From the NCBI GenBank assembly GCA_000993955.1, contig LBZW01000001.1:1-42447 (forward strand): DNA of 42,447 bases. Direction: 5' to 3'. Origin of the DNA: Candidatus Nomurabacteria bacterium GW2011_GWA2_40_9. Lineage in GTDB: Bacteria; Patescibacteriota; Minisyncoccia; Phycocordibacterales; UBA9973. Below the pieces are notes generated by a model. It had not been told where the DNA came from, did no database searches, and was given only the letters and a program-made list of their open reading frames with translations. Positions 1 through 36,876 of the stretch are shown one piece after another. The number at the start of each line of letters is the position of its first letter. The stretch's first letter is position 1. Both the position numbers and the translations under genes were made by a program.

Positions 1-485
1 CAGGCATAGTTGCCTTGTACTCCTTTAGTTACTTTCCATGTGGTTTCATCGTAATGTTGAGCAAATTGTTTCTGGATTCTCACTTTCAGCCTTTCATATT
101 CAGGTCGTAAGCTATTTGCTTCCTTTTCAAGTATTTTCTGTATTTCGCCTTGTGAGATATTGATTTGATAGATGTCTTTGATATTGTCTTCAATTTGTTG
201 GTATGAAAGTCTAAGAATGATGGAAAGGTAGCAGATATATTTCCTGAGCTTTACTCCGATGATGCATCGAATTGATGGTAAAGATATTGCACTTCTCCAT
301 TTGTTACATTTTTCGCAGTAACCCTGCTCAACAGTATGCTTGATTGCTTCCTTTTGATTATCGAGGACTATGTCTTCCTCATAGTAGATGACGATCTTTT
401 TCCTAGTTAGTTTTGTATCACAGGTGGAACAGTTATCAATTGGATGATTTTCAATCCTAGTGATTTCAGCAGGTATTGGTCTTTG
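1..485 (-). pseudogene. IS66-family transposase fragment, N-terminally truncated and running off the left edge
   Basis: Absent from the ORF track (no ATG). The minus-strand frame is open from 485 to 1 and reads ..RPIPAEITRIENHPIDNCSTCDTKL..GYCEKCNKW..LSYQQIEDNIKDIYQINISQGEIQKILEKEANSLRPEYERLKVRIQKQFAQHYDETTWKV. This is a CxxC..CxxC zinc finger, then an HTH-like segment, then the H.DET entry into the DDE core, as in IS66 TnpC. The N-terminal coiled-coil part is missing and the frame abuts the RAYT cassette. Confidence 0.55.
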
Positions 486-491
486 GGATAA

Positions 492-509
492 AAGGGGACA
501 GCCACCATT
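492..509. repeat. Left 18-bp inverted repeat of the Y1-transposase cassette (AAGGGGACAGCCACCATT)
   Basis: Perfect reverse complement of 1226-1243 and 1275-1292. Extends to about 26 bp with 1-2 mismatches (TGGGATAAAAGGGG.. versus TGGGAAATAAGGGG..). Confidence 0.9.
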
Positions 510-542: not shown

Positions 543-1217
543 ATGCCACGCAATGCAAGAGTTGACGTAGGAGGAGAAATTTATCATGTAATCAATCGTG
601 CAAACGGTTGTCTTCAGATATTTAACAAAGATGAAGATTATGAACTATTTGAAGAATTACTTTTTGAAACAAAAGAACTTTTTCATATGCGTATATTAGC
701 CTATTGTTTGATGCCAAATCATTTTCATTTAGTCCTATATCCTAAAAATGACGGGGATATGGGTTTATTTATGCATCGATTGAGTAATTCTCATACCAGA
801 AAAGTGCACGCACTCACAAATACAAATGGTAGTGGGCATTTGTATCAAGGTCGCTACAAATCTTTTCTCGTAGATAAAGAAAATTATCTTTCAGCGATTA
901 TTAAATATGTTGAGCGTAATCCAGTGCGAGCTAAGCTCTCTAAACTTTGTGAGGATTGGAAGTGGGGTAGTGCTTGGCTGCGTATCAGTGGAAAACTTGA
1001 GCAACATAAATTACTTGATCAAAAATCTTTTGATCTTCCAGATAATTATATTAAATGGATTAATATTTCTGAAGATGAAGATTTATTGAAAAATATTCGT
1101 GTTTCAGTAAAAAAAGGTGTTCCATATGGTAAAGAAAAATGGGTGGATAATATGGTATTGAAATACAAACTTGAATCAACCCTAAGATCCCAAGGAAGAC
1201 CAAGGAAAGATAGATGA
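543..1217 (+). CDS. IS200/RAYT-like HUH tyrosine (Y1) transposase
   Basis: 224 aa. HUH motif in LMPNHFHLVLYP; conserved YHVINRAN N-terminus; GHLYQGRYKS; catalytic-Tyr helix IIKYVERNPVRAKL. This pattern matches COG1943 / Y1_Tnp REP-associated transposases. The gene is flanked by inverted repeats. Confidence 0.8.
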   Translation: MPRNARVDVGGEIYHVINRANGCLQIFNKDEDYELFEELLFETKELFHMRILAYCLMPNHFHLVLYPKNDGDMGLFMHRLSNSHTRKVHALTNTNGSGHLYQGRYKSFLVDKENYLSAIIKYVERNPVRAKLSKLCEDWKWGSAWLRISGKLEQHKLLDQKSFDLPDNYIKWINISEDEDLLKNIRVSVKKGVPYGKEKWVDNMVLKYKLESTLRSQGRPRKDR

Positions 1218-1945: not shown

Positions 1946-2908
1946 ATGAAGACAGAACAGAAGACAGTACACACAAGTGTTCTTTTAAAAGAAAGTATAG
2001 ACGGGCTGAATCTTAAGAAAAATCCCCAAAGCCTTGCTTCTGGAAATAATCTTGTAGTAATAGACGGTACATTTGGCGGAGGGGGACACAGTAGTGAGAT
2101 ATTAAAAAATTACCAAAATGTAAAAGTCATCGGTATAGATCAAGACAAGAGTGCATGGGAAAAGGCAAAAGATAAATTTGTAGGGTTGGAAGACAGGATT
2201 ACTTTTGTAAATGGAAATTTTCGAGACATAAAAGAAATTGTGGAAACTTCGGGTGTTGGACACCGAGATTCCAGGTGTCCAACACCCGAAGTAGATGGAG
2301 TATTACTTGATTTGGGACTCAGTTCTGATCAATTAGAGAATTCTGGTAGGGGATTTACTTTCATGAAAGATGAGCCGTTGTTTATGACTATGAAAGCAAA
2401 TCCAACATCTTCAGATTTAACGGCACAAGATATAGTAAATAATTGGAGCGAAGAAAATATAGCAAATATTATATATGGTTATGGTGAGGAGAGGTTTAGT
2501 AGAAGAATAGCAAGGCGGATAGTAGAAGCGAGGAAGGCAAAAGAGATAAAAACTACTTTTGAACTCGTAGAGATTATAAAAAATGCAGTGCCAAAAAAGT
2601 TTCAAAAAGGCAAGATAAATCCGGCTACAAAGACTTTTCAGGCATTGCGTATGGCAGTAAATGATGAATTGAATACTCTAGAGTCTGGGCTAAGTGGAGG
2701 GTTTGATATTTTAAAAAGCGGAGGCAGGCTGTCAGTCATATCATTCCACAGTCTCGAAGACCGGATAGTAAAGAATTTTTATAAAAAGAAAGTAGTAGAA
2801 GGCAAGGCAAAATTAATAAATAAGAAAATAATAACAGCAGGAAGTGAAGAATTGAAAACAAATAATAGATCAAGGAGTGCAAAATTAAGAATAATAGAGA
2901 AAATATGA
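1946..2908 (+). CDS. rsmH: 16S rRNA (cytosine1402-N4)-methyltransferase RsmH
   Basis: HTSVLLKESI, DGTFGGGGHS, VDGVLLDLGLSSDQLE, ISFHSLEDRIVK, NNRSRSAKLR. Start at the in-frame ATG 1946. Confidence 0.92.
   Translation: MKTEQKTVHTSVLLKESIDGLNLKKNPQSLASGNNLVVIDGTFGGGGHSSEILKNYQNVKVIGIDQDKSAWEKAKDKFVGLEDRITFVNGNFRDIKEIVETSGVGHRDSRCPTPEVDGVLLDLGLSSDQLENSGRGFTFMKDEPLFMTMKANPTSSDLTAQDIVNNWSEENIANIIYGYGEERFSRRIARRIVEARKAKEIKTTFELVEIIKNAVPKKFQKGKINPATKTFQALRMAVNDELNTLESGLSGGFDILKSGGRLSVISFHSLEDRIVKNFYKKKVVEGKAKLINKKIITAGSEELKTNNRSRSAKLRIIEKI
2024..2043. repeat. Palindromic element family C/G, single unit, in frame in rsmH
   Basis: CCCCAAAGCCTTGCTTCTGG is near-identical to the left arm of the atpG copy at 26613-26632. 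The preceding AAAATCCCCAAAGC also matches 26633-26646. Encodes NPQSLASG. Confidence 0.7.
2246..2292. repeat. Palindromic element family A, inverted dimer, in frame in rsmH
   Basis: ACTTCGGGTGTTGGACACC (2246-2264), 9-nt loop, GGTGTCCAACACCCGAAGT (2274-2292): a perfect 19-bp stem. Encodes ..TSGVGHRDSRCPTPEV.. just before the conserved DGVLLDLG. Confidence 0.9.
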
Positions 2909-3270: not shown

Positions 3271-4993
3271 TAATTCTAACTTTACAAGTAGAACCAAAAT
3301 TTTCTCTTTGTGCTTGCTTTTTTTTGCTTTTATTTTGATAAGTAAACTTTTTTTAGTTTCTGTGGTGCATGGCAAGAGTTATTCTAGTATTGCAAATCGT
3401 CAATATGTGACCCCCTCTTCAAACATCTCGGAACGAGGGTCAATATTTTTCGAACGCAAAGATGGTGAGTTAGTTTCTGCTGCAATGCAGGCAGTAGGTT
3501 TTAAAGTCACTATAGATCCGAGTCAGATAGTAAATGACATAGAAGCATATGAAAAACTATCTACAATCATAGAGATAGATAGAGATGAATTTTTGATAAA
3601 AGCAGGCAAGAAAAAAGACCCCTATGAAGAGATAATAAATAAAATAACCAAAGAGCAAGCAGACAAAGTGGGAGCCTTAAAAATTTCTGGAGTAAAAATA
3701 TCAGAAGAAAAATGGCGTTTTTATCCAGGGGGAAATTTGGCTTCGCACACTTTGGGATTTGTGGCTTACGAGGGTGATGAACTCGGGGGGCGCTACGGCA
3801 TAGAGAGAGAGTATGAGAATGTTCTGTCACGAGACAAAGACAATCCGTATGTAAATTTCTTTGCAGAAGTGTTTTCCAATTTAAATAAAAGTTTGTTTGA
3901 AAAAGAAATAAAGAAGGGAGATATTATCACCACCATAGAGCCCAATGTAGAAAACTTTTTAGAAAATGAATTGGAACTAGTGAGAGAAAAATATCAAGCA
4001 GATGCGATAGGGGGGATAATCATAAATCCTATGGATGGCTCTATCTACGCTATTTCCAGCAAGCCGGATTTTGATTTAAATAATTTTTCAAAAGTAAAAG
4101 ATGCTTCTAGTTTTTCTAACCCCATGATAGAAAATGTGCTTGAATTTGGTTCTGTGGTAAAGCCTCTAGTGATGGCGGCGGCACTAGACACCGGTGTGGT
4201 GAATGCAAATACGAGCTACAATGACACTGGTTCTGTAATGATAGAGAAAAAAGAAATTTTTAATTTTGACAAAAAAGATCGTGGTCCGGGGACAACTATG
4301 CAGGATGTACTCAGTCAATCTCTAAACACAGGTATGGTATATGTCTATCAACAGTTAGGAAAAAAAAATATGCATGATTATATGTTGTCGTACGGTATCA
4401 AAGAAAAAACTGGCATAGATTTGCCAAATGAGACGAGTGGATTGGTGTCAAACCTCACAGCAAATTTAAATAATAAACGCGAGATAGAATACGCAAATGT
4501 TGCCTTTGGTCAGGGTATAGCACTCACTCCTATAGAGATGGTGCGGGCACTTGCTTCACTTTCAAATGGGGGGAACTTGGTTGTGCCTCATGTAGTAGAT
4601 AGAATAAAATACCAAAGTGGCAAAGAAGAAAAAATAATTTATCCTACATCTAAAACAAAAATAAGTGAACAAACCGCAGAAGAAATAACTCGAATGCTCG
4701 TAACTGTGATGGATAAATCCCTGAAAGGTGGACTTGCAAAATTTGAACACCATAGCGTAGCTGTAAAGACAGGTACGGCACAGGTTGCAGACAATGTAGG
4801 AGGAGGGTATTATGAAGACAGGCACACACATTCGTTTTTCGGATATTTCCCTGCCTATGACCCTAAATTTATAGTTTTCTTGTATGCAGTAAATCCAAAA
4901 GGCGTACCTTATGCTTCTGTTACTTGGGCAGATCCATTTTTAAATATTACTAAATTTCTGCTCAATTATTATGAAGTTCCACCGGATAGATAA
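3260..4993 (+). CDS. ftsI: Penicillin-binding protein 2/3-type transpeptidase (FtsI-like)
   Basis: N-terminal TM; SxxK (GSVVKP), SxN (SQSLNTG), KTG (VKTGTA); dcw context. Confidence 0.9.
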   Translation: MKSNNSNFTSRTKIFSLCLLFFAFILISKLFLVSVVHGKSYSSIANRQYVTPSSNISERGSIFFERKDGELVSAAMQAVGFKVTIDPSQIVNDIEAYEKLSTIIEIDRDEFLIKAGKKKDPYEEIINKITKEQADKVGALKISGVKISEEKWRFYPGGNLASHTLGFVAYEGDELGGRYGIEREYENVLSRDKDNPYVNFFAEVFSNLNKSLFEKEIKKGDIITTIEPNVENFLENELELVREKYQADAIGGIIINPMDGSIYAISSKPDFDLNNFSKVKDASSFSNPMIENVLEFGSVVKPLVMAAALDTGVVNANTSYNDTGSVMIEKKEIFNFDKKDRGPGTTMQDVLSQSLNTGMVYVYQQLGKKNMHDYMLSYGIKEKTGIDLPNETSGLVSNLTANLNNKREIEYANVAFGQGIALTPIEMVRALASLSNGGNLVVPHVVDRIKYQSGKEEKIIYPTSKTKISEQTAEEITRMLVTVMDKSLKGGLAKFEHHSVAVKTGTAQVADNVGGGYYEDRHTHSFFGYFPAYDPKFIVFLYAVNPKGVPYASVTWADPFLNITKFLLNYYEVPPDR

Positions 4994-5026: not shown

Positions 5027-6397
5027 ATGAAAATTTTTTTTAAAAAAATAATAATTTATATTTTACAATTAGAGTCACGATTAGTACTCAATAAATACAA
5101 GCCCAAAGTAGTGGCTATCACTGGATCTGTGGGCAAGACTTCTACAAAAGACGCAGTGTATGCTGTCCTATCAGAGTTTGCTTATGTTCGTAAAAGTGAA
5201 AAGAGCTACAATAGTCAAATAGGATTGCCACTCACTATACTCGGAGTTCCAAATGCTTGGAATAGTCCGACTATGTGGCTAAAAAACATTTTAAAAGGAT
5301 TATGGCTTGTCATCTGGCCACACAAATACCCCGAGTGGCTGATACTAGAAGTAGGAGTGGGCAAACCAGGAGATATGCAGGAAACTGCTTCGTGGCTTTC
5401 AACAGATGCTGTTATCATGACAGCGATAGGTGAAACTCCAGCACATATAGAATTCTTTAGTTCACGCAAACATTTGATAGAAGAAAAAAGCGGACTTATA
5501 AAAACTTTGAAAAAACCTGCCCGCAATGCTTCAGACATAGCTGATGCAGGCGGGGCTGGATTGCTTATCTTGAATGCAGATGATGAAGTGGTGTTGAGTA
5601 TGAAAAGTAAAACAAAAAATATAACAGTTACTTATGGTTTTCAAAAAGATTCTGACTTCTTGGCTTCCGAGGAGAGTATCTTGTATGTAAAAGAAGACGA
5701 AAATAAAACCAGAAGCAAGAGTATCCCTCAGGGTATAATGTTTCGTATAGATGAAGACGGTAGTAGTCTGCCGGTGGTGATAGAAGGAGTGTTTGGCAGA
5801 AATCATGTGTATGCTGCGCTCGCTGCGCTTGCGCTCGCTCATAATCTAAAGCTAAACATGATTCAAGCTATAAATTCGTTGAAAAATTACAAAGTCCCTC
5901 CTGGCAGGATGAGGCTCCTAACTGGAATAAAAAATACTCTTATCATAGATGATACTTACAATTCTTCGCCGTTTGCTTGCGAGTCTGCTCTCAAGACTAT
6001 AGGAGTTATAAATAAAGAATCAAAATTGAAGAACAGAAAGATAGCAATACTAGGAGATATGTTAGAACTAGGCAAATATACCGAAGAAGCACATAAAAAT
6101 ATAGGCAAATTGGCAAGAGAAAATATAGATGTGCTCGCAGTAGTCGGAGCTCGTGCAAAAGCTATCAAAGCTGGTGCATTGGAGGCAGGCTTTGATGACG
6201 AAAATATTTTTGAATTTATGACTTCGGTTGAGGCAGGAGAGTGGGTAAAAACTTTTATTAAAAAAGGGGATATTGTTTTGTTTAAGGGTTCCCAGGGTAT
6301 GCGTATGGAGCGGGCAGTAGAGGCTATACTAGAAGATCAAGAAAATAAGCACGATCTACTCGTCCGTCAAGACAAAGAGTGGCTGGATAAGAAATAA
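5027..6397 (+). CDS. murF: UDP-N-acetylmuramoyl-tripeptide--D-alanyl-D-alanine ligase MurF
   Basis: P-loop ITGSVGKTSTKD, LNADDE, DDTYNSSP, GDMLELG; dcw context. Confidence 0.85.
   Translation: MKIFFKKIIIYILQLESRLVLNKYKPKVVAITGSVGKTSTKDAVYAVLSEFAYVRKSEKSYNSQIGLPLTILGVPNAWNSPTMWLKNILKGLWLVIWPHKYPEWLILEVGVGKPGDMQETASWLSTDAVIMTAIGETPAHIEFFSSRKHLIEEKSGLIKTLKKPARNASDIADAGGAGLLILNADDEVVLSMKSKTKNITVTYGFQKDSDFLASEESILYVKEDENKTRSKSIPQGIMFRIDEDGSSLPVVIEGVFGRNHVYAALAALALAHNLKLNMIQAINSLKNYKVPPGRMRLLTGIKNTLIIDDTYNSSPFACESALKTIGVINKESKLKNRKIAILGDMLELGKYTEEAHKNIGKLARENIDVLAVVGARAKAIKAGALEAGFDDENIFEFMTSVEAGEWVKTFIKKGDIVLFKGSQGMRMERAVEAILEDQENKHDLLVRQDKEWLDKK
5516..5555. repeat. Palindromic element family D, in frame in murF
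   Basis: CCTGCCCGCAATGCTTCAGACATAGCTGATGCAGGCGGGG. The first 15 nt are identical to the atpG copy (26176-26190) and the 3' part is related (..CATAGC..TGCAGG.GGGG). Encodes PARNASDIADAGGAG. Confidence 0.8.
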
Positions 6398-6529: not shown

Positions 6530-7603
6530 CTAGCTGTCTAATTCCGGTTTTATAACTTCAAGCAAATTTAATTCTGGTGAAGAGCCGGCTATGCGGAGCA
6601 CATCTTTGTCTATCTTTTTGAGTTCTTTGTTTGAGGAATTGTAATGATTTACGACAGTAGAGAGTGATGCACCGAGCTTGTTGTGGTATTCATCATAAGA
6701 CTTTAGATGTTTGCCCAGCTCTTCTACTCTCTTTATTATTTCTTTTGCAGATTCTTCTATCTGCAAGGCTTTGAGGCCTTGGAGAACAGTTTGTAAATAT
6801 GCGAGAAAGGAAGTGGGGGAGGTGATGATGACTTTGTATTTACCCGCAGCACGCTGGATTAAGTTATCATTTTCATCGTCTTTCTGACTTCCCATCTTGC
6901 CTCCAATTTTATTTGTAATCAAATCATAATAAATAGCCTCATGAGGTATAAACATAAATGCGAAGTCTGTAGTGCCTTGCGCTGGTTGCACGTATTTTGC
7001 AGTTTCTACTATTCTGTTTTTTAAGTCGTTCACAAATACTACTTCTAGTCTTTTTTTCTCTGCGCTATCTACTGCTTCTATCATCTTGTTATAATTTTCT
7101 AAAGAGAATTTTGAATCTATGGGTATTATTTTATCTTTTACAAATACTACTGCATCCACGATAGTACCATCGGCAAAAGGATATTGCATTTGGTAGCTCC
7201 CCGGAGGGAGGACATTTTTGAGCACAGTCTCTAGATAATACTCTCCAAGTATTCCACGCTGTTTCGGATTCTTTAAAATATTCTCCAGGCTCTGAAGCTG
7301 GTCTGCAAAGGAGATGACTTGTTTGTTTGTCTCATCTAGCCTAGTCAGCCTCTCTGTCACATCTCTGATTATTTTATTAGATTCACTGGAATGAAATTTC
7401 AAGCTTTCATTTACTTGCTTGTGACTTTCGCCAATCTTATTATCCACTGTTCTAGACAGCTCATTGATTTGGGTGAGGATAAGATTGAGGCCTATGTTCT
7501 CTTGATCGTTTTGTGAATTTCCTGCCCCTTTTCTACTAAACAAAAAGTAAGCTATAACCACCCCTCCCACAATCCCAATAATTATAAATAAAATAGTTTG
7601 CAT
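6530..7603 (-). CDS. rmuC: DNA recombination protein RmuC
   Basis: N-terminal TM, coiled coil, RGILGEYYLETVL.., DSKFSLENY.., FMFIPHEAIY: RmuC family pattern. Confidence 0.85.
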   Translation of the reverse strand: MQTILFIIIGIVGGVVIAYFLFSRKGAGNSQNDQENIGLNLILTQINELSRTVDNKIGESHKQVNESLKFHSSESNKIIRDVTERLTRLDETNKQVISFADQLQSLENILKNPKQRGILGEYYLETVLKNVLPPGSYQMQYPFADGTIVDAVVFVKDKIIPIDSKFSLENYNKMIEAVDSAEKKRLEVVFVNDLKNRIVETAKYVQPAQGTTDFAFMFIPHEAIYYDLITNKIGGKMGSQKDDENDNLIQRAAGKYKVIITSPTSFLAYLQTVLQGLKALQIEESAKEIIKRVEELGKHLKSYDEYHNKLGASLSTVVNHYNSSNKELKKIDKDVLRIAGSSPELNLLEVIKPELDS

Positions 7604-9619: not shown

Positions 9620-10225
9620 ATGCACACTGTAAAACTCATAACTGGCTTGGTAGAGCATCATCAAATTTTGGCTTATTTTGTTATTTTTCTAGGGCTCATA
9701 TTTGAAGGGGAGTTTATACTGCTCACTACTGGAGTGTTGACATACCTCGGAGGGTTGGATTTTGGTTTCGCTTTGCTTTTTGTTTTTTGCGGTGGAATAT
9801 CTAAAAGTCTGCTCGGATATTATATAGGTAAAGTTATACATAAAAAATGGCGGGATACAAAATTTGTAAAATATTTAGAACACAGGGTAACCGATGTCAT
9901 GCCGAACTTTAGTCACAAACCTTTTTGGTCTATATTTATTTCAAAATTTATCATGGGGGTAAATCATCTTGTTATTATCTTTTCTGGTTTTAAGAAAATA
10001 AATTACAAGACATATATAAAAGCAGAATTTATCTCCACTGCTATCTGGGCACCACTGCTACTGTCGCTCGGATACTTTTTCGGTTATACTGCACTTAATG
10101 TAACTCGTGAAGTGTGGAGGTTCTTATTGGTTGTATTTATCCTGATAATAGGATTTTTGATTTTAGATAAATTATTTGCATTTATTTACAGAGTTTTTGA
10201 AGAATTTTATGATAAGCAGAATTAA
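9620..10225 (+). CDS. DedA/VTT-family membrane protein
   Basis: Multi-TM; LGLIFEGEFILLTTGVL..G motif region typical of DedA. Confidence 0.65.
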   Translation: MHTVKLITGLVEHHQILAYFVIFLGLIFEGEFILLTTGVLTYLGGLDFGFALLFVFCGGISKSLLGYYIGKVIHKKWRDTKFVKYLEHRVTDVMPNFSHKPFWSIFISKFIMGVNHLVIIFSGFKKINYKTYIKAEFISTAIWAPLLLSLGYFFGYTALNVTREVWRFLLVVFILIIGFLILDKLFAFIYRVFEEFYDKQN

Positions 10226-11147
10226 AAAACAAAAAGTTCATAAACTCGTCACACACAATGGGTCATTTCACTCTGATGATCTTTTTGCTTGTGCAGTTCT
10301 GGTCATTATGCTCGAAGATCAGGGGAAAAAGTTTGAGATCATTCGTACTCGAGATGAAGAAGTTTTAAAACAAGGTGATTATGTTTTTGATGTAGGTGGT
10401 ATGTATGTTCCAGAGTTAAATAAATTTGACCATCATCAGCGGGGTGGGGCAGGTGAGAGGGACAATGGAATTCTGTATGCGTCATTTGGTCTCGTGTGGA
10501 AAAATTTCGGACTGGATTTGTGTGATGGAGATGAAGAAGTTTTTAATATGATAGACAGGAAAATAGTTGCACCGATAGACTCTATAGACAATGGTGTGGA
10601 TATAGTAACTCCAAAATTTGATAATATAGTGCCCTATGGCGGAGATCAGCCGTTTCTGATATTTACCCCTACTTGGCAAGAAGACGAATCCGAGACTGAT
10701 AATATTTTTAGAGTTCAAGTCAGGTCTGTGGCTAAAGTATTGCGAAGAGAAATAGAAGTGGCAAAGGCAGATAGTGCAGGCAGGCAGCTCATAGTAGAAG
10801 CATACAAAAATTCAGCAAACAAACAAATCATAGAACTACCAAAATCTGGTTTTCCTAGATACTTATATCAAAAGACCCTTTCTTGTTTTCCAGAGCCTAT
10901 TTATGTAGTATACGAGAGTGCTCATACAGACAATTGGAAAGTAGAGGCTATAACAAAAAGTCCCGATACATTGGAAAGCAGAAAGTATTTTCCTGAAAGC
11001 TGGCGGGGGTTCATGAATAACGATCCAAAATTTGGAGATGTGACAGGAGTGTCGGACGCTATATTTTGCCACAAGAGCGGGTTCCTCCTCACAGTAAAAT
11101 CAAAAGAGGGGGCAATGAAATTAGCAGAATTAGCATTAAAGAGTTAG
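10209..11147 (+). CDS. MYG1/UPF0160 family metal-dependent hydrolase
   Basis: THNGSFHSDDLFACAVL, DVGG..DHHQ are family hallmarks. Start at the in-frame ATG 10209, overlapping the DedA end by 17 nt. Confidence 0.75.
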   Translation: MISRIKKQKVHKLVTHNGSFHSDDLFACAVLVIMLEDQGKKFEIIRTRDEEVLKQGDYVFDVGGMYVPELNKFDHHQRGGAGERDNGILYASFGLVWKNFGLDLCDGDEEVFNMIDRKIVAPIDSIDNGVDIVTPKFDNIVPYGGDQPFLIFTPTWQEDESETDNIFRVQVRSVAKVLRREIEVAKADSAGRQLIVEAYKNSANKQIIELPKSGFPRYLYQKTLSCFPEPIYVVYESAHTDNWKVEAITKSPDTLESRKYFPESWRGFMNNDPKFGDVTGVSDAIFCHKSGFLLTVKSKEGAMKLAELALKS

Positions 11148-12188: not shown

Positions 12189-13700
12189 ATGCAAGAAAAA
12201 AATTCTGAAAAATATTACACCACCATCGGGCTTGAAATACACGCAGAATTGAAGACAACTACAAAGATGTTTTGTAGTTGTAGAAATAACCCTGATGAAA
12301 CAAAACCAAATACAAATATCTGCCCTGTGTGCATGGCGCACCCTGGGGCATTGCCTGTAATAAATAAAAAAGCAGTTGAGAATGTGATAAGAGTTGGTCT
12401 GGCTATCGGTGCAGAGATTGCAGATTTTTCAGAATTTGATAGAAAGAATTATTTTTATCCCGACATCCCAAAAGGGTACCAGATTTCTCAATATAAATAC
12501 CCAATAGTAAAAGGTGGCAAACTAGCTGGTATGGATATCACTCGTATTCACTTAGAGGAAGATACAGCGAATAACAAACACCTGTCGGGTGTTGGACACC
12601 CGGAAATTCAGGACGAGTATTCACTCATTGACTTCAATCGTGCTGGCGTGCCACTGATGGAGCTTGTGACCGAGGCGCATACTTTTGAGACGAGTGAGGA
12701 GGCAGCAAAAGTTGCGAGTAATTTTGCAAAAGAATATCAGCTCCTCCTGCAGTATATAGATGCCTCAGAAGCGAATATGGAAAAAGGGGAGATGCGAGTG
12801 GAAGCAAATGTATCTGTCTCACCTGATAAAGATAAGAAATGGACTGCCTATGTGGAAGTAAAAAATTTAAACTCTTTCAAGAGCGTAGAAAAAGCTATCA
12901 AATATGAAGTAGAGCGAATGATAGAACTTTTTGAAGAAGGCAAAGAGAGTGAAATAGTAAAAGAAACTCGTGGCTTCGATGAAGCAAAGCAGAGGACTGT
13001 GTCTCAGCGTAAAAAGGAATCCAGTGAAGACTACAGATACTTCCCAGACCCAGACCTACCAAAGATGAAACTTCATGAAGCGTTTGATTTGGAAAAAGTG
13101 AAGCAAGAGTTACCTGAGTTGCCCATGCAAAAGCGCGTGCGATATAAGAATGATTTTGGAATAAAAGATGAAGATATAGAAATTTATATAAATGATAAAG
13201 AGCTTGCAAAATGGTTTGAAGAAGTTGCAAATCTTTTGTTTTCTCCCCCTGCCAGAGGGGGAGTGTCCGAAGGACGAGGGGGTGGGAGTGAAAAAATTAA
13301 AACAGCATCAAATTATATCACATCAGATTATTTGGGTATAAAGAAGTTCCAGCCAGAGGCAAGGCCTCTGGCTGCGACGAATTTTGCCGAGCTTATAAAT
13401 TTGGTTACAGAAAATAAAATCTCTTCTCGCGCTACAAAGGACATACTTGCGATGATAGTGATAGATGATGCGTCTCCATTAAAAATAGCAACAGAGAAAA
13501 ATTTGTTACAAAAAAATGATGAAGGCGAACTAAAAGGTATAGTAGAAAAAATACTTGCAGAAAATCAGCAAGTAGTGGCTACATACAAAGGCGGTAAAGA
13601 AAATGCTCTTATGTCCCTAGTGGGTAAAATAATAAAAGAAACAAATGGCTCTGCCAATCCACAGGTGGTAATTAAATTATTAAAAGAGTTGATAAAATAA
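12189..13700 (+). CDS. gatB: Asp/Glu-tRNA(Asn/Gln) amidotransferase subunit B
   Basis: GLEIHAEL, CPVCMAHPGALPV, RKNYFYPD, HLEEDT, FNRAGVPLMELVTE, and a C-terminal YqeY-like tail. TATAAT at 12175-12180 lies 8 nt before the ATG. Confidence 0.95.
   Translation: MQEKNSEKYYTTIGLEIHAELKTTTKMFCSCRNNPDETKPNTNICPVCMAHPGALPVINKKAVENVIRVGLAIGAEIADFSEFDRKNYFYPDIPKGYQISQYKYPIVKGGKLAGMDITRIHLEEDTANNKHLSGVGHPEIQDEYSLIDFNRAGVPLMELVTEAHTFETSEEAAKVASNFAKEYQLLLQYIDASEANMEKGEMRVEANVSVSPDKDKKWTAYVEVKNLNSFKSVEKAIKYEVERMIELFEEGKESEIVKETRGFDEAKQRTVSQRKKESSEDYRYFPDPDLPKMKLHEAFDLEKVKQELPELPMQKRVRYKNDFGIKDEDIEIYINDKELAKWFEEVANLLFSPPARGGVSEGRGGGSEKIKTASNYITSDYLGIKKFQPEARPLAATNFAELINLVTENKISSRATKDILAMIVIDDASPLKIATEKNLLQKNDEGELKGIVEKILAENQQVVATYKGGKENALMSLVGKIIKETNGSANPQVVIKLLKELIK
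12585..12603. repeat. Palindromic element family A, single unit, in frame in gatB
   Basis: TCGGGTGTTGGACACCCGG: a 7-bp stem. Matches the reverse complement of the intergenic copy 32881-32899 at 18 of 19 positions. Encodes LSGVGHPE between HLEEDT and the conserved YSLIDFNR. Confidence 0.85.
13243..13283. repeat. Palindromic element family E, in frame in gatB
   Basis: CTCCCCC-TGCCAGA-GGGGGAG-TG-TCC-GAA-GGA-CG-AGGGGGT. Same 41-nt architecture as 15025-15065 on the other strand. Encodes SPPARGGVSEGRGGGS. Confidence 0.85.
13350..13374. repeat. Palindromic element family C, single unit, in frame in gatB
   Basis: CAGCCAGAGGC-AAG-GCCTCTGGCTG: an 11-bp perfect stem. Encodes QPEARPLAA. Confidence 0.9.
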
Positions 13701-14656: not shown

Positions 14657-16528
14657 ATGGAAGAAATTTTAAAAAAAGATTTAAAACAAGAAATACAAAA
14701 ATTTTTTAAAGGGGATGTGGAAGATGGGGAAGAGACTCTCTCAAAGTATTCTAGGGATGCGAGTATTTTTGAAATTCGACCACAGTTGGTGCTTTTTCCA
14801 AAAGATACAGAAGATGTGAAAAGTTTAGTAAAGTGGGTCAGTGAAAATTGCGGTAGGCAAGACCTACCACAATTATCTATTACTTGTAGATGTGCAGGGA
14901 CGGATATGTCAGGCGGTGCTATAGGTGAATCTATTATCTTGGATTTTACGAGGTACATGAATAAGTTGATTGCATTTTCTCCCCTCCTTGTGGAGGAGGG
15001 GGTAGGGGGTGGTGATTCAAAATTACCCCCTCGCCCTTCGGGCACTCCCCCTTATCAAGGGGGAGAGGAAAACACAATCACGGTTGAACCTGGTATGTTT
15101 TATAGAGATTTTGAAAAAATAACTTTATCTAAAGGAATGATTTTGCCTTGTTATACTGCATCGAAAAGTTTAAATGCTATGGGTGGTATGTATGGAAATA
15201 ATTCTGCCGGAGAGCGAACACTCAAATACGGCAAAACTGACAATTATATCTTGGAATCAAAAGTAGTTTTCGGAGACGGGAATGAATATGTGGTGAAGCC
15301 ACTGACGGAAGAAGAATTGAACAAAAAAATATCTCAGAATGATTTTGAGGGAAATATTTATAAAAATATTTATGAGCTTATACAAAATAACCAAGAAGAA
15401 ATAAAAAATGCCAAGCCAAAAGTACACAAAAATTCTGCTGGGTATTATGTATGGAACGTGATGGGAGTAAATACGCAGGATGTGAAAAATTCTGCCGTCT
15501 TTACCCTTCCCGGAGTACCGGGTGGGACCTACGCCGATCAGGATTTTTCACATCCTGCGTATTTTGATTTAAACAAACTTCTCGTCGGCTCTCAGGGCAC
15601 ACTTGGCATAGCGACAGAAATTACTTTTAAATTAGTGCCAAATCCAAAGTACTCAAAACTTGTAGCAGTATTTATGAATGACCTGGCACCACTTGGGAAT
15701 CTCGTAGATGAGATTTTGGAATTAAATCCAGAGACGTTGGAAGCTTATGATGACAAGACTATGAAGCTCGCTGTCAGGTTTTTCCCAGATTTTTTGAAAA
15801 ATAAAGGGTTTATAGGCATGATAAAATTTATGTGGAGCTTCTTACCAGAACTCGGGATGACGATTACGGGAGGATTCCCTAAGCTTATTCTTCTGGCTGA
15901 ATTTGCCGGAGAAAATAATCTCGAAGTGCAGATAAAATGCAAAGCCCTGCAAGAAAAAATAAAACATTTTAACCTAAAAGTTCATATCACACATTCTACT
16001 GCTGAATCAAATAAATATTGGGACATTAGACGGGAGAGTTTTGCATTACTTCGCAAGCATGTAGCCGGCAAGCACACTGCGCCATTCATAGATGACATCA
16101 TAGTTCGTCCGGAATTCTTGCCGAAGTTTATTCCCCAGTTGAATGAGATCTTGAGAAAATATGATCTGACTTATACTATCGCAGGGCATGCAGGAGATGG
16201 AAATTTTCACATCATACCGCTCATGAATTTCTCTAGGCCTGATATGGGGCAGATAATTATGGAGCTATCAGAAAAGGTATATGACTTGGTTTTGAAATAC
16301 GAAGGCTCTATCACAGCAGAGCACAATGACGGCATTATCCGTACGCCATTCTTACAAAAAATGTACGGTGAGAAAATAATAGAAATATTTAAAGAAATAA
16401 AAAACATCTTTGATCTAAAATATATTTTGAACCCTGGCAAAAAAGTCCCCATAGAAGATGGCCAAGGCTCTAAAGAATTTATATTATCTCATATATATAA
16501 GGAGCATACGACGGTACACAAAGTCTAA
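14657..16528 (+). CDS. FAD-binding oxidoreductase (GlcD / D-lactate dehydrogenase family)
   Basis: N-terminal FAD_binding_4-like region (RCAGTDMSGGAIG), LVGSQGTLGIATEITFKL, and C-terminal HAGDGNFHI..GSITAEHNDG motifs. Carries two inserted repeat elements. Confidence 0.8.
   Translation: MEEILKKDLKQEIQKFFKGDVEDGEETLSKYSRDASIFEIRPQLVLFPKDTEDVKSLVKWVSENCGRQDLPQLSITCRCAGTDMSGGAIGESIILDFTRYMNKLIAFSPLLVEEGVGGGDSKLPPRPSGTPPYQGGEENTITVEPGMFYRDFEKITLSKGMILPCYTASKSLNAMGGMYGNNSAGERTLKYGKTDNYILESKVVFGDGNEYVVKPLTEEELNKKISQNDFEGNIYKNIYELIQNNQEEIKNAKPKVHKNSAGYYVWNVMGVNTQDVKNSAVFTLPGVPGGTYADQDFSHPAYFDLNKLLVGSQGTLGIATEITFKLVPNPKYSKLVAVFMNDLAPLGNLVDEILELNPETLEAYDDKTMKLAVRFFPDFLKNKGFIGMIKFMWSFLPELGMTITGGFPKLILLAEFAGENNLEVQIKCKALQEKIKHFNLKVHITHSTAESNKYWDIRRESFALLRKHVAGKHTAPFIDDIIVRPEFLPKFIPQLNEILRKYDLTYTIAGHAGDGNFHIIPLMNFSRPDMGQIIMELSEKVYDLVLKYEGSITAEHNDGIIRTPFLQKMYGEKIIEIFKEIKNIFDLKYILNPGKKVPIEDGQGSKEFILSHIYKEHTTVHKV
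14979..15065. repeat. Composite palindromic insertion: E-prime unit (14979-15012) plus family E unit in reverse orientation (15025-15065), in frame in the FAD oxidase
   Basis: CTCCCCTCC-TTGT-GGAGGAGGGG-GTAGGGGGTGG resembles the atpD copy. The reverse complement of 15025-15065 is CTCCCCC-TTGATAA-GGGGGAG-TG-CCC-GAA-GGG-CG-AGGGGGT. Encodes SPLLVEEGVGGGDSKLPPRPSGTPPYQGGE. Confidence 0.85.
15469..15564. repeat. 96-nt MITE-like element with 22-bp perfect terminal inverted repeats, in frame in the FAD oxidase
   Basis: AAATACGCAGGATGTGAAAAAT (15469-15490) and ATTTTTCACATCCTGCGTATTT (15543-15564) are exact reverse complements. The centre carries the GC hairpin CCCGG-AGTA-CCGGG. 96 nt equals 32 codons. 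Confidence 0.85.
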
Positions 16529-22329: not shown

Positions 22330-23221
22330 TTTAGAACATAATGGAGAGGTAGTAGAGGAGACAAGTCACGAAGTGACTATCTATGCAGAGCCGATTTTTC
22401 ATGTGGGTAATTTTGCTATCACAAACTCGCTTTTTACTACTTGGCTTGCAGTGCTTTTGATTGCTATATTTTCTCTCGTTATCCGATTAAATCTCAAAAA
22501 AGTTCCAGGGAAATTACAAAATATTTTTGAAGTTATGCTCGAGGGTGCTATGTCTCTCACTGATCAAGTCACAAATGACAGAAAAATAACGAATAAAATT
22601 TTTCCTTTAGTATTTTCTCTTTTTGTATTTATTTTAATAAATAATTGGATCGGGCTTTTGCCTTTTATTTCTGCTATTGGTTTTACGGTTGTTGAAAGTG
22701 GGCAAAATGTTTTTGTTCCTCTTTTTCGTGCGGGGACTGCGGATATCAACACCACCCTTGCTTTGTCGCTTATGATCATTGTCGCTTCAAATCTATTTGG
22801 CATACTCACTATCGGGCTCTGGAAACTTTTTAATAAATATGTTAATCTAAAAGCACTTGGTGAGATATTTACCAAGTTTAAAAAGGACAAGACTGTGGTC
22901 ATCGTATCTCCAATTTCTGTGTTTGTAGGGTTGCTTGAACTCATAGGAGAAATGGCAAAAATCGCATCGCTTTCTTTTCGTCTTTTTGGTAATGTTTTTG
23001 CAGGAGAAGTATTGCTCGCTTCTATGTCGGCAATATTTTTGTATATTTTACCGGGGCCGTTTTTGTTCCTTGAAGTTTTCATAGGACTCATTCAAGCATT
23101 GATATTTTCTTTGCTTGGGGCTGTGTATTTTACCATCGCAGCGCAGGATCATAATGAACACGAGGAGTATGAAACGGTGAGAGCTTTAGACTCTCATGAG
23201 AGTCTAAAGCTCTCACCGTAA
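22319..23221 (+). CDS. atpB: F0F1 ATP synthase subunit a
   Basis: Multi-TM, with the conserved Arg helix LSFRLFGNVFAGE. The C-terminal 15 aa are encoded by palindrome B. Confidence 0.9.
   Translation: MANNLEHNGEVVEETSHEVTIYAEPIFHVGNFAITNSLFTTWLAVLLIAIFSLVIRLNLKKVPGKLQNIFEVMLEGAMSLTDQVTNDRKITNKIFPLVFSLFVFILINNWIGLLPFISAIGFTVVESGQNVFVPLFRAGTADINTTLALSLMIIVASNLFGILTIGLWKLFNKYVNLKALGEIFTKFKKDKTVVIVSPISVFVGLLELIGEMAKIASLSFRLFGNVFAGEVLLASMSAIFLYILPGPFLFLEVFIGLIQALIFSLLGAVYFTIAAQDHNEHEEYETVRALDSHESLKLSP
23175..23218. repeat. Palindromic element family B forming the 3' end of atpB
   Basis: CGGTGAGAGCTTTAGACTCTC-AT-GAGAGTCTAAAGCTCTCACCG: a 44-nt perfect palindrome ending 0 nt before the TAA stop. 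Encodes TVRALDSHESLKLSP. Confidence 0.92.
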
Positions 23222-25968: not shown

Positions 25969-26916
25969 ATGACCGGAACAAAAGAAATTAAAAGAAGAAT
26001 AAAGAGTGTGAAGAACACAAAGAAGATAACCAAGGCGATGGAGCTAGTGGCTGCTTCGAAGATGAAGCGCGCAGTTTCTAAGACTCTCGCATCTCGTGTG
26101 TATGCAAATTATTCTTGGGAGCTTTTGACTTCTGTTTCAGCAAAACTTGAAGAGGTGACACACCCATTTTTTACTCCTGCCCGCAATGCTACGCATAGCG
26201 TTGCAGGTGGGGAAAATAAAACAGGTAAAACTTTGATAGTTCTCATCACTTCAAACAGAGGTTTGTGCGGAGCGTACAATTCTCAAGTCATCAAGAAAAC
26301 TATTTTAAAACTAAAATCTTTAGAAAATGAAGAAGTTGATTTCATAACCCTTGGCAAAAAAGGCGACGGCACTATGCGCAGAGTAGGGCAGAATATCGTG
26401 GCATCTTTTATTGAATTGCCAGATATTATTTCTTTATCTGATATCACAGCTGTGTCTAACTTTTTAACTAGTGAATATAAAATAGGAAATTATAAAAAAG
26501 TCTATGTGGCATATACAGACTTTGTATCAGCACTGACTCAAAAAGCACAGATCAGAAAGCTCTTGCCAGTGTCTAAAGAAGAATTGAAAGAAGTAATAGA
26601 CGGTCTAGATTCCCCCAAAGCCTTGCTTTTGGAAAATCCCCAAAGCAAGGCTTTGGGGTCAACATATTTGTTCGAAGGTGATATAAATAAACTCATAGAA
26701 ACGCTGGCAGAAAAACTAGTAAAGATGCAGATATATCAGATGTTGTTAGAGTCCAATGCTTCCGAACAGTCAAGCAGAATGCTTTCAATGAAAAATGCCG
26801 GAGACGCAGCAGGAGAGATGATCAATGATTTGACCTTGGTATTCAACAAAGCAAGACAGGCAAATATTACCAGAGAAATAAGTGAGATTAGTGCCGGTAT
26901 GGCAAGTGTGAGTTGA
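25969..26916 (+). CDS. atpG: F0F1 ATP synthase subunit gamma
   Basis: IKRRIKSVKNTKKITKAMELVAASKM N-terminus and NKARQANITREISEI C-terminus. Contains two inserted palindromes. Confidence 0.95.
   Translation: MTGTKEIKRRIKSVKNTKKITKAMELVAASKMKRAVSKTLASRVYANYSWELLTSVSAKLEEVTHPFFTPARNATHSVAGGENKTGKTLIVLITSNRGLCGAYNSQVIKKTILKLKSLENEEVDFITLGKKGDGTMRRVGQNIVASFIELPDIISLSDITAVSNFLTSEYKIGNYKKVYVAYTDFVSALTQKAQIRKLLPVSKEELKEVIDGLDSPKALLLENPQSKALGSTYLFEGDINKLIETLAEKLVKMQIYQMLLESNASEQSSRMLSMKNAGDAAGEMINDLTLVFNKARQANITREISEISAGMASVS
26176..26212. repeat. Palindromic element family D, in frame in atpG
   Basis: CCTGCCCGCAATGCT-ACGCAT-AGCGTTGCAGGTGGGG. Folds on the sense strand with 14 pairs, 3 of them G-U. 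Encodes PARNATHSVAGGE. Confidence 0.8.
26613..26658. repeat. Palindromic element family C/G, inverted dimer, in frame in atpG
   Basis: CCCCAAAGCCTTGCTTTTGG-AAAATCC-CCAAAGCAAGGCTTTGGGG: a 19-bp stem with one bulged T. Encodes SPKALLLENPQSKALG. Confidence 0.88.
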
Positions 26917-28549: not shown

Positions 28550-29029
28550 ATGTCAAAGCAATTAAAACTAAAAATAGTAACTCCAGAAAAATTGGTTCTA
28601 GAAGAGCTTGTTGATGAAGTGATTATCCCTACTACAGAAGGGGAGATTGCTGTGTTGCCTGAACACATACCTATAGTTGCTGGACTCAAATCAGGAGATG
28701 TTGTCGGCATAGTAAACGGCGAGCATATTCCTTTTGCTGTCGTTGGAGGGTTCGTAGAAGTGAAATATTTACCAGAGGCAAGGCCTCTGTCTGCCAGAGG
28801 CCTTGCCTCTGGTATTACTGAAGTAGTGATTCTCGCTGATTTTGCAGAACATGTATCAGAACTTTCTGATGATGCTGTAACAAAAGCAAAAGCTCGTGCC
28901 GAAGAACTACGCAAACAAGCAGAAAACAAAGAAGTAGTAGACTTTGAACACTTTGAGTCCGAACTCGAGCGCGCTCTAACCAGAGTCAAAATCGCTGACA
29001 AGTGGAGAACTAGAAAGTATAGGAAATAA
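28550..29029 (+). CDS. atpC: F0F1 ATP synthase subunit epsilon
   Basis: LKIVTPEKLV..VIIPTTEGEIAVLPEHIPIVAGLKSG.., GGFVEV.., and a C-terminal helical hairpin. Carries a 15-codon palindrome insertion. Confidence 0.88.
   Translation: MSKQLKLKIVTPEKLVLEELVDEVIIPTTEGEIAVLPEHIPIVAGLKSGDVVGIVNGEHIPFAVVGGFVEVKYLPEARPLSARGLASGITEVVILADFAEHVSELSDDAVTKAKARAEELRKQAENKEVVDFEHFESELERALTRVKIADKWRTRKYRK
28770..28814. repeat. Palindromic element family C, inverted dimer, exactly 15 codons, in frame in atpC
   Basis: TACCAGAGGCAAGGCCTCTG-TCTGC-CAGAGGCCTTGCCTCTGGTA: a 20-bp perfect stem. Each arm contains the gatB unit CCAGAGGC-AAG-GCCTCTG. Encodes (Y)LPEARPLSARGLASG(I). Confidence 0.92.
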
Positions 29030-32914: not shown

Positions 32915-33649
32915 ATGGATATTTTAGAACATCTAGATATAGACAACCTACATCATGCATATTTGATAGAAGATAGAAGTGCTGAAGCCTTGCCCGTGAT
33001 TCTAGAATTTTTAGCAAACTCTAATATAAACATACTAAATAATCCAGACTTTTTTCATATTTCTGCTGATTCTATAAAAATAGATGATGCACGACGACTC
33101 AAAGCCATGGGAGCTGATAGGGGATTTGATGGAACTGTAGGAAGTAAAAAGATTTTTATAATTTCTACGAACAGTTTTTTATTGGAAGCACAAAATACTT
33201 TACTCAAGATGTTTGAAGAGCCTATAGAACACACACATTTCTTTTTAATTATGCCGGATACAGACAGTCTGCTTGCTACTTTCAAATCCAGATTTTATTT
33301 TATTTCTTCAAATTCAAATATAAATAATATAAATACCGAATTAAAAGAAGCAGAGAAATTTGTGTCTATGACTTTGCCACAGAGAATTGAATTTATAAAA
33401 GAATTGATAACTGAAGTAGAGGATGAAGAAGACTCTATCTCTGTAGACTCTGCTCGCACAAAAGCCCAAAAGTTTTTAAATGCTTTAGAAACAGTACTAC
33501 ACCAACAAATGTCAAAGGCGGGCTTTGACACAAAAAACAACCTGACTTTCTTTCAGCAAATTTTCCAAGTCCGCAAATATCTCCGCCAACCCGGGTCTTC
33601 TACAAAGAGTTTAATGGAGTCTGTGGTGTTATCTGTACCATATTTTTAA
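32915..33649 (+). CDS. holB: DNA polymerase III delta-prime-like clamp-loader subunit
   Basis: HHAYLIE.., KIFIISTNSFLLEAQNTLLKMFEEPIEHTHFFLI matches the AAA+ box VII / sensor region of HolB. No intact P-loop. Confidence 0.7.
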   Translation: MDILEHLDIDNLHHAYLIEDRSAEALPVILEFLANSNINILNNPDFFHISADSIKIDDARRLKAMGADRGFDGTVGSKKIFIISTNSFLLEAQNTLLKMFEEPIEHTHFFLIMPDTDSLLATFKSRFYFISSNSNINNINTELKEAEKFVSMTLPQRIEFIKELITEVEDEEDSISVDSARTKAQKFLNALETVLHQQMSKAGFDTKNNLTFFQQIFQVRKYLRQPGSSTKSLMESVVLSVPYF

Positions 33650-36813: not shown

Positions 36814-36869
36814 TCCACATGTCGGACATAGGGTCGGTCATTTTTTTTAGTCCCTATGTCCGACATGTG
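36814..36869. repeat. 56-nt palindrome (family F) in the perM-cysS spacer
   Basis: CCACATGTCGGACATAGGG (36814-36832), 18-nt loop, CCCTATGTCCGACATGTGG (36851-36869): a perfect 19-bp stem. Each arm contains the near-palindrome ATGTC(G/C)GACAT. Confidence 0.9.
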
Positions 36870-36876
36870 GTCTTAT

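Follow-up and report, generated by a model that had tools for sequence, protein, structure and literature searches.

The REP–RAYT systems of Proteobacteria, reportedly described by Nunvar in 2010, pair repetitive extragenic palindromic (REP) sequences with REP-associated tyrosine transposases (RAYTs). The classic in-frame palindromic inserts are the Rickettsia palindromic elements (RPEs), reportedly described by Ogata et al. in 2000, with RPE-1 said to measure ~100–150 bp. RPE-4 and RPE-6 were later grouped with the tagged REPs, and we know of no transposase partner for RPE-1. REP doublets forming hairpins (REPINs) were defined by Bertels & Rainey 2011 (PMC3116915), and the Escherichia coli RAYT is represented by structure 4ER8, "REP associated tyrosine transposase bound to a REP hairpin" (Messing 2012, PMC3479197). 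Di Nocera et al. 2013 (PMC3733652) already reported intragenic REPs and dimers coding 20–30 residues from Opitutus terrae, Rickettsia conorii, and other species.

Here we describe very short hairpins in a 42,447-nt stretch of DNA (the window) from Candidatus Nomurabacteria bacterium GW2011_GWA2_40_9 (contig LBZW01000001.1), a member of the Candidate Phyla Radiation (CPR), starting from a 45-nt palindrome in atpC, the gene for the epsilon subunit of ATP synthase. This palindrome is likely a REPIN-like inverted doublet of a 19–23 nt REP-like hairpin, from a superfamily of the form NCRRARGC-AAG/CTT-GCYTYYGN that is the partner of a lineage-specific RAYT (Y1/HUH) clade in Nomurabacteria/Paceibacteria. 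The window is 33–43% G+C and ~89% coding, and exact copies of its proteins are present on groundwater metagenome contigs. Homologs of its epsilon subunit likewise point to Candidatus Nomurabacteria/Paceibacteria, a group of the Patescibacteria or CPR.

As in REP/REPIN–RAYT systems, the units are short GC-rich palindromes (19–25 nt, with an 8–11 bp stem and a 3-nt loop) that occur singly or as inverted doublets folding into a longer hairpin. Units of the same kind flank a Y1/HUH transposase gene (in relatives, not in the window), several paralogous transposases per genome each have their own hairpin family, and the transposase neighbors, in the order htrA–RAYT–MFS (major facilitator superfamily), are kept across some lineages. 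Unlike in those systems, the units are shorter (19–23 nt), with perfect stems and the 3-nt loop, and the doublet spacers are 4–6 nt rather than tens of nucleotides. About half or more of the copies are intragenic, single units dominate, and family C is without the GTAG/CGTC tag. The RAYT clade is divergent and has a copy of its hairpin within the reading frame, at a conserved position that follows the HUH motif. The host differs as well, being a CPR bacterium whose genome is small.

The palindrome in atpC

Units of two related forms, families C and G, are found at the following sites of the window:

28770..28814, + strand: family C doublet in atpC, within the open reading frame (ORF) 28550–29029 (+), Pfam ATP-synt_DE_N and ATP-synt_DE
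13350..13374, + strand: single family C unit in gatB, stem lengthened to 11 bp, CAGCCAGAGGC-AAG-GCCTCTGGCTG, coding QPEARPLAA
26613..26658, + strand: family G doublet in atpG, CCCCAAAGC-CTT-GCTTTTGG, spacer AAAATC, CCCAAAGC-AAG-GCTTTGGGG, a compensated variant of family C
2024..2043, + strand: decayed single family G unit in rsmH, CCCCAAAGC-CTT-GCTTCTGG, with an imperfect stem

A repeat search places the arms of the atpC palindrome at 28770–28789 and 28795–28814, each 20 nt and 100% complementary with 5 nt between them, which bears out the perfect 20-bp stem and 5-nt loop of the original prediction. Each arm is in itself a small hairpin, CCAGAGGC-AAG-GCCTCTGG. The doublet runs CCAGAGGC-AAG-GCCTCTG, spacer TCTG, and then the inverted unit CCAGAGGC-CTT-GCCTCTGG, a REPIN-like order. 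The 19-nt unit CCAGAGGCAAGGCCTCTGG is found exactly at 28794–28812 (− strand) and with one mismatch at 28772–28790. An exact match at 13353–13371 confirms the single copy that had been proposed in gatB, and 100 shuffles of the window gave no match at all. As DNA, the atpC element has a folding energy of −25.7 kcal/mol (z = −9.2), and as RNA one of −41.6 kcal/mol (z = −8.7). Neither the atpC nor the atpG palindrome has a T tail, and neither is listed by a terminator scan.

The in-frame reading of the doublet is (L)PEARPLSARGLASG, and predicted insert-spanning peptides include YLPEARPLSAR and GLASGITEVVILADFAEHVSELSDDAVTK. The palindrome had been described as exactly 15 codons long. Its length of 45 nt stands, but it is out of codon register, with its first base at base 2 of codon 74, and the gain in protein length is smaller. 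The site is empty in the closest insert-free ortholog (P0005, on L004/L005), which is 36 nt shorter, so the window has a net gain of 12 codons. When aligned with solved epsilon subunits, the insert shows as a gap of 14 residues, which falls between the two final strands of the N-terminal beta domain. An AlphaFold model of epsilon places it between strands 68–75 and 88–95. The model is poor (pLDDT 55) and was used solely for the position of the insert between two predicted strands, a point that is carried by the alignment to solved subunits.

The baseline length of epsilon in this group is 147–148 amino acids, and across relatives the loop after GGFVEV holds 0–24 extra residues of unrelated sequence. 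The relatives fill the loop as follows:

L001 (epsilon 89% identical): family C units, the first with its loop reversed (CTT for AAG)
L072 (P0018): doublet with stems CCAGAAGC/GCTTCTGG, G->A and C->T compensated in all four arms
L006/L008 (P0004): hairpin of family H, a different family that is also present in the window
L073 (P0078): two CCCGAC...GTCGGG hairpins
L074 (P0056): 40-nt palindrome of yet another family

The extra residues are palindrome-coded in all cases examined, with at least four DNA families represented among the palindromes. The atpC palindrome is, as had been proposed, an insertion and not a conserved segment of epsilon; rather than sharing a lineage-wide segment with nonpalindromic DNA, the relatives have either no insert or other palindromes. 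The suggestion that the insert affects F1 regulation has fared worse. A loop that accommodates 0–24 unrelated residues argues for a permissive site rather than a regulatory adaptation, and the claim is unsupported and should be dropped unless tested.

The 40–46 nt palindrome family in L074, a Nomurabacteria relative, has the form ACTTGGTAGTCGGAGTACC-AAGT-... and is present in three copies in 12 kb (4251–4292, 6222–6262, and 7271–7316, in atpG, atpC, and rsmI). Its copy in atpG lies at residue ~215, the position of the G doublet of the window.

Related units and stem covariation

The family C unit of gatB is the same in the ortholog of the sister genome L053 save that its 3-nt loop is reverse-complemented, from AAG to CTT. 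Unlike the other hairpin-coded stretches, this unit (PEARPL) shows no clear length change against solved GatB.

In atpG, the predicted dimer of the G variant is present at 26613–26658, but its arms are 20 nt with 95% complementarity rather than a 19-bp stem. The G variant CCAAAGCCTTGCTTTTGG (CCAAAGC-CTT-GCTTTGG) is found at 26615–26632, at 26639–26656 (− strand, one mismatch), and at 2026–2043 (one mismatch), with an expected number of 0.04; the last of these is the predicted single unit in rsmH, now decayed. The atpG doublet forms an 18-residue gap against solved gamma subunits; L001, L006, and L074 have other stem variants or families at the orthologous position. The window, L001, and L006 share the core GC-CTT-GC but differ in their stems, which are CCCAAAGC, ACGGAGGC, and GCGGAAGC, respectively, with transitions compensated in every arm. 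All six C/G units of the window are intragenic.

Covariation was assessed on 16 units that were picked by orthology, not by pairing. Among them 94.4% of cells are paired, with a few G–T pairs, and both members of five of the nine stem pairs have changed. Compensated cells number 27, compared with 8.8 ± 2.5 in shuffles, and none of 500 shuffles reaches 27. The stem covariation, taken together with the conserved core, therefore shows that the earlier view of C and G as a single diverging superfamily is right. A first covariation survey was discarded as circular because its units had been selected by pairing; it was replaced by the orthology-chosen units and a count of bare GCAAGGC cores.

Spread of the unit over genes and genomes

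The exact family C 19-mer occurs in nine copies in two Patescibacteria metagenome-assembled genomes (MAGs), four in one and five in the other, according to a genome scan. The remaining seven matching stretches of that scan are in unrelated, mostly GC-rich genomes, at about the level of chance plus unrelated hairpins. A metagenome scan found the 19-mer on 38 contigs, of which those with low G+C carry it in many unrelated ORFs. It is found exactly on seven contigs of the sister sample that is the source of the window's closest atpC relative. A scan of viral contigs for the 19-mer gave no match and thus no sign of a phage vector.

When metagenome contigs, genome-scan loci, and the window were deduplicated, 35 unique low-GC family C sites were obtained. 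Of these, 19 lie deep within long open frames, a location at odds with the extragenic setting that defines REPs. Depending on the gene, the unit is read as PEARPL, PEALPL, ARGKASG, ARGLASG, or QRQGLW, which covers three frames and both orientations, and the sense-strand orientations are without bias (10 versus 9). Families C, G, and H are stop-free in all six frames. A further family of the window, S, has only two open frames, and both of its coding copies use that reading. The stop-free frames and the variety of peptide readings indicate that what is conserved is the nucleic acid and not the peptide, which is a by-product that selection filters. Many of the copies in the KR13 and Old_saline MAGs lie between genes, where they are preceded by an A-run and followed by a T-run and resemble bidirectional terminators. 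Further doublets are found in L072 (atpC) and L001 (atpG).

Matches in GC-rich genomes (Coriobacteriia, Burkholderiales, and others) were considered as family members and set aside as chance or unrelated hairpins. On a set of Coriobacteriia-like contigs of 60% G+C, mostly labeled human gut (L024, L025, L028, L031, L033, L041–L043, L046, L055, and L057), the 19-mer forms the central element of a conserved block of three hairpins, CAAGGGAC-GAAG-TCCCTTG, the 19-mer, and CAAGGGGC-AAAG-CCCCTTG. These occurrences look unrelated to the CPR family. On L009 and L013, the 19-mer adjoins an apparent tRNA gene end.

RAYT genes next to the hairpins

The association of the hairpin with a transposase, like its REP/REPIN-like nature, went unseen in the original prediction. 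It is found on L035, from the same sample as L001, where a 236-amino-acid ORF has TAGCCAGAGGCCTTGCCTCTGGCT on both sides and a third copy in-frame inside. The left copy overlaps the stop codon of the upstream htrA-like gene, and the right copy overlaps the stop codon of the RAYT ORF itself. The protein shows the motifs YHIYNRG, LMPNHFHIYL (the HUH motif), and YIHLNP, and residues H83, H85, and Y155 are invariant in the alignment of this type of RAYT. A phmmer search of this protein and of the RAYT-like protein of the window against solved structures gave nothing meaningful, so a comparison of folds was needed. The AlphaFold model of the L035 protein (pLDDT 76, pTM 0.77) has as its top Foldseek match in the PDB the E. 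coli RAYT (4er8_A; E = 2.3e-5, TM 0.62), followed by TnpA of ISDra2 and IS608.

Homologs of the L035 protein are found on L037 (93% identity), L051/L027 (38%), and L020 (33%). All of these have the exact 19-mer ~25–30 nt upstream of the ATG and one copy in-frame inside the gene. It lies also at or just after the stop codon in L035, L037, and L051; L020 has no downstream copy. The clade is large, with at least 7942 proteins in Patescibacteria at E <= 0.001, some of them labeled RayT by their sources.

As a test of prediction, four further members of the clade (L062–L065) were fetched by protein sequence alone. Each of the four has superfamily hairpins a short way 5' of the start codon, within the gene, and at the 3' end of the gene or overlapping it. 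In L062, L063, and L064 the stem is of the ACGGAAGC type, AAAGACGGAAGC-CTT-GCTTCCGTCTTT, and in L065 it is of the CCGGACGC type, AGCCGGACGC-CTG-GCGTCCGGCT. The hairpin is thus concentrated around and inside RAYT genes, and its stem differs with the RAYT lineage. L063 also has two paralogous Y1 genes, each with different hairpins of its own. The order htrA–RAYT–MFS is common to L035, L037, and L065 (68–93% identity), while other neighborhoods are found in L063 and L064.

The internal hairpin follows the HUH motif and is kept across the clade, where it codes TEARLPS, TEALLPS, PDAWRPAS, or MPEALPLA in a segment that is disordered in the model. It lies at 8152–8172 in L035, at ~10270–10296 in L062–L064, and at 10341–10363 in L065, and its sequence changes along with that of the flanking hairpins. 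In L051 and L020, the internal hairpin is elsewhere, before the HUH motif.

The window has a RAYT-like gene of its own:

543..1217, + strand: RAYT-like Y1/HUH transposase gene, Pfam Y1_Tnp E = 4e-14, 53 bits, above the gathering cut-off
494..509 (+ strand), 1226–1241 and 1275–1290 (− strand): left and right copies of a 16-nt inverted repeat, GGGGACAGCCACCATT, flanking this gene

NCBIfam REP_Tyr_transpos also matches along the entire ORF (E = 1e-18), with a score of 67.6 bits that is below the cut-off of 80. The gene is a distant paralog, with 29% identity to the family C-flanked clade (tblastn to the L035 RAYT), and is probably not the cognate enzyme of family C. Its inverted repeats do not form hairpins and are found nowhere else in the window. 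The layout is that of the tyrosine transposase genes flanked by terminal inverted repeats that were described by Di Nocera et al. 2013 (PMC3733652). At 1196–1335, a 49-bp tandem duplication (CCAAGGAAAGATAGATGATAGAAAAGAATGGTGGCTGTCCCCTTATT twice) doubles the right inverted repeat and is followed by a run of CCTTATT-like repeats. On the other side, an IS66-family DDE transposase gene (window 1–500, − strand; L066 135–848) adjoins the RAYT-like gene and is cut by the left edge of the window. The public contigs of the organism stop at this IS66 transposase and shortly beyond the right end of the window, which suggests that the IS66 gene probably breaks assemblies.

How the hairpins may move

By analogy with TnpA of IS200/IS605 and the biochemistry of the E. 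coli RAYT (in part PMC3479197), the RAYT would mobilize the hairpins. The enzyme would recognize the hairpin on single-stranded DNA and cut at its foot, and the hairpin would be copied or moved to new sites. With ~89% of the genome coding, most insertions would hit genes. The survivors would be those that keep the frame, bring no stop codon, and fall in a permissive surface loop, where they would be translated as short passenger peptides. The inserts in the F1 complex are accordingly presumed to be translated and are probably neutral for it.

Doublets and the frequent reversal of the 3-nt loop may come from a second insertion beside a resident hairpin or from a hairpin-templated strand switch. 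With stems and flanks identical, the loop is exactly reverse-complemented between orthologs in gatB (versus L053), in unit 1 of atpC (versus L001), and in the internal copy of the RAYT gene, where EARLPS is set against EALLPS. Such reversal fits either excision and reinsertion or a hairpin-templated strand switch.

It is possible, if somewhat doubtful, that the CPR bacteria have a REP/RAYT mode of their own. The lineage would keep its target hairpin in-frame in the transposase gene after the HUH motif, and its active family would overwrite or flip resident hairpins in permissive loops (the epsilon loop and gamma residue ~215), with insertion targeted to hairpins rather than random. The process would then be a major ongoing source of peptide insertions in CPR housekeeping proteins.

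Weighing the explanations

Several points weigh against a RAYT-partnered REPIN-like origin. The main gap is that the cognate family C RAYT is not visible in the 42-kb window, because the RAYT-like gene there is only 29% identical and has unrelated inverted repeats as flanks. Extending the window along public contigs did not bring the cognate gene to light either. The L035-type RAYT matches NCBIfam REP_Tyr_transpos at E = 3.6e-9, below the curated cut-off, and has no Pfam match at E <= 0.01. The identical 19-mer flanks two RAYT clades that are only 38% identical, which is odd if specificity co-evolves strictly. The window holds only three C and three G units, and copies elsewhere are mostly single, whereas classical REPINs are mainly doublets. 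The flanks of family C read (A/T)G...C(A/T) with no conserved GTAG/CGTC tag, although the ACGGAAGC variant ends in CGTC. At atpC, no target-site signature, duplication, or clean insertion boundary could be defined. We know of no cleavage or transposition assay for any CPR RAYT.

The hairpins could instead be RNA or DNA structures selected by the host, such as terminators, mRNA stabilizers, or processing or pause sites in the atp operon, that RAYT-like genes merely adjoin. The intergenic copies of KR13 and Old_saline with their A- and T-runs, the S doublet at the 3' end of atpB, and the upkeep of stems by compensated changes, with a few G–T pairs, are all in keeping with such a function. We nevertheless consider it unlikely, given that the atpC and atpG copies have no T tail and were not flagged as terminator-like, that close orthologs differ in presence and absence, that the two sense-strand orientations are about equal, and that no Rfam family matches at the hairpin sites; nor would a host function predict the exact unit to be concentrated around and inside RAYT genes. 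Local production of palindromes in variable loops by replication template switching (quasipalindrome correction or inverted duplication), with neither a transposase nor movement between loci, accounts well for the reversed loops, for a doublet that is a unit plus its own reverse complement, and for stems that often extend into the flanks. It leaves unexplained why an identical 19-mer is present in unrelated genes and different genomes and why it flanks RAYT genes, and as a full account it is quite improbable. Template switching probably contributes to the doublets and loop flips, not to the origin of the family.

Epsilon is the regulatory subunit of ATP synthase, and the insert is in-frame between two strands of its N-domain, which would suit a lineage-specific lengthening of epsilon (and gamma) that is adaptive and serves to tune F1 regulation, the palindromic DNA being incidental. 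This becomes very improbable when the same loop holds 0–24 unrelated extra residues in relatives, always palindrome-coded in the cases examined and drawn from at least four DNA families, and when the frame in which this DNA unit is read changes from protein to protein. There is still less to be said for the units as DNA uptake sequences that naturally competent CPR bacteria would have spread through biased uptake and recombination. The uptake sequences of Neisseria and Haemophilus are likewise inverted pairs at gene ends and inside genes, and orthologous sites here are seemingly "overwritten" by the locally dominant family. But the many families per genome, the low density (~3 units per 42 kb versus ~1 per kb), and the tight association of the units with RAYT genes all speak against uptake, and we give it hardly any credence. 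The REPIN-like doublet with a RAYT partner is thus left as the best explanation.

Comparison with other mobile and repeated elements

Like the RPEs, the hairpins are in-frame palindromic repeats in unrelated protein genes, housekeeping genes included, at positions that the fold tolerates and in a reduced AT-rich genome. They are set apart from RPEs by description: the elements are 19–47 nt rather than the ~100–150 bp said of RPE-1, and they have a RAYT partner. The GC clusters and double-hairpin elements of fungal mitochondria are said to be similar, by description only, as small GC-rich hairpins that spread in AT-rich compact genomes and are sometimes in-frame; those are organellar and reportedly have no known transposase. 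IS200/IS605 elements and their miniature derivatives, the palindrome-associated transposable elements (PATEs), use the same enzyme superfamily and recognize hairpins on single-stranded DNA, and IS608 and ISDra2 TnpA are the next-best structural matches after 4ER8. Unlike these, the RAYT genes described here have the same hairpin on both flanks and, in some lineages, a conserved genomic neighborhood, and single 19–45 nt hairpins without distinct left and right ends are dispersed. The elements also differ from miniature inverted-repeat transposable elements in that they are one hairpin rather than terminal inverted repeats around a core, with no target-site duplication visible at indels, and from intrinsic terminators in that the atpC and atpG stems are without a T-run, while some intergenic copies in other MAGs have one.

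A literature search turned up no report of REP/RAYT systems or of in-frame palindromic inserts from CPR bacteria, although its coverage was incomplete and it is no proof of absence. What seems new is the CPR host, hairpins that are very short and perfect and have tiny spacers, the predominant location of copies inside core genes, a divergent RAYT clade that carries its own hairpin in-frame, and the reuse of the same protein loops by different families. Odd GC-rich, lineage-specific insertions in conserved CPR proteins could thereby be explained as translated copies of RAYT-associated hairpins. The host range of REP/RAYT would extend from mainly Proteobacteria to ultra-small, gene-dense genomes, where repeats must live in genes. 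The inserts offer a natural experiment on insertion-tolerant protein loops. They can also be misleading when CPR core genes are modeled, aligned, or placed in phylogenies, and the hairpins can break or misjoin assemblies. The hairpin inside the RAYT gene, the reversal of loops, and the reuse of a loop by different families make the mechanism of REP spread testable.

Other hairpin families in the window

The window has 11 perfect GC-rich hairpins against 1.6 ± 1.3 in shuffles. Besides the C/G superfamily there are at least five further hairpin families, which the original prediction had missed; most of the hairpins are within genes, and several are doublets built as in atpC. An Rfam search of the window returned two tRNAs only. 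The other hairpin features are as follows:

2246..2292, + strand: family H doublet in rsmH, ACTTCGGGTGTTGGACACC ... GGTGTCCAACACCCGAAGT; nested build like atpC, different family; 9-residue gap versus solved RsmH
12582..12612, + strand: single family H unit in gatB, coding SGVGHPEIQ; 9-residue gap versus solved GatB; rearranged in L053
32881..32899, no strand assigned: single intergenic family H unit, TCGGGTGT-CCA-ACACCCGA
26177..26212, + strand: 36-nt imperfect hairpin in atpG, coding PARNATHSVAGG; clean 36-nt indel versus L001 and L006; −18.9 kcal/mol; 11-residue gap versus solved gamma
23174..23219, + strand: family S doublet in atpB (subunit a), in the last 15 codons and overlapping the stop codon
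31333..31378, − strand: family S doublet in a 660-amino-acid helicase-like ORF, in the stop-free frame shared with the atpB copy, VRALDSRESLKLS; absent in L008
13242..13288, + strand: C-run/G-run hairpin insert in gatB, coding SPPARGGVSEGRGGGS; absent in L053 (39+3-nt indel); 16-residue gap versus solved GatB

Family H has the form TCGGGTGT-TGGA-ACACCCGA and is found in rsmH, gatB, and one intergenic spacer. Against solved homologs, gaps are seen at the atpG and rsmH hairpin inserts and at two of the three gatB inserts. The atpB doublet of family S is present in L001, where the stop codon lies inside the spacer, and absent in L006. C-run/G-run hairpins related to the gatB insert are found at 14981–15001 and 15045–15065, and such hairpins are also present in the FAD oxidase gene. 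No target-site duplication is visible at the clean indels in gatB (13242–13288) and atpG (26177–26212).

A 96-nt nested palindrome at 15469–15564 is in-frame in the FAD-linked oxidase ORF, with 26-nt outer arms, an inner CCCGG-AGTA-CCGGG hairpin, and a folding energy of −52.6 kcal/mol as RNA. An intergenic doublet of another family, CCACATGTCGGACATAGGG ... CCCTATGTCCGACATGTGG, lies with a T-rich spacer at 36815–36870 between two − strand genes. The hairpin at 33510–33530, TGTCAAAG-GCGGG-CTTTGACA, resembles TGTCAAAG-CCCGT-CTTTGACA, found just 5' of the third Y1 transposase paralog in L063.

An apparent fresh insertion polymorphism between L006 and the near-identical L007, a 155-nt indel, was rejected as an assembly artefact, since L007 ~7388–7487 is an N run, a scaffold gap with duplicated flanks. 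Toxin–antitoxin type genes lie between atpA and atpG in relatives (L001 3958–4416, PemK; L006 6703–7473, a nucleotidyltransferase with HepT), and there are none at this place in the window. In L006, a Hainich relative, a repeated intergenic block that ends in four CTAAAGC repeats lies 5' of two genes of the atp operon (4180–4250 and 9929–10000).

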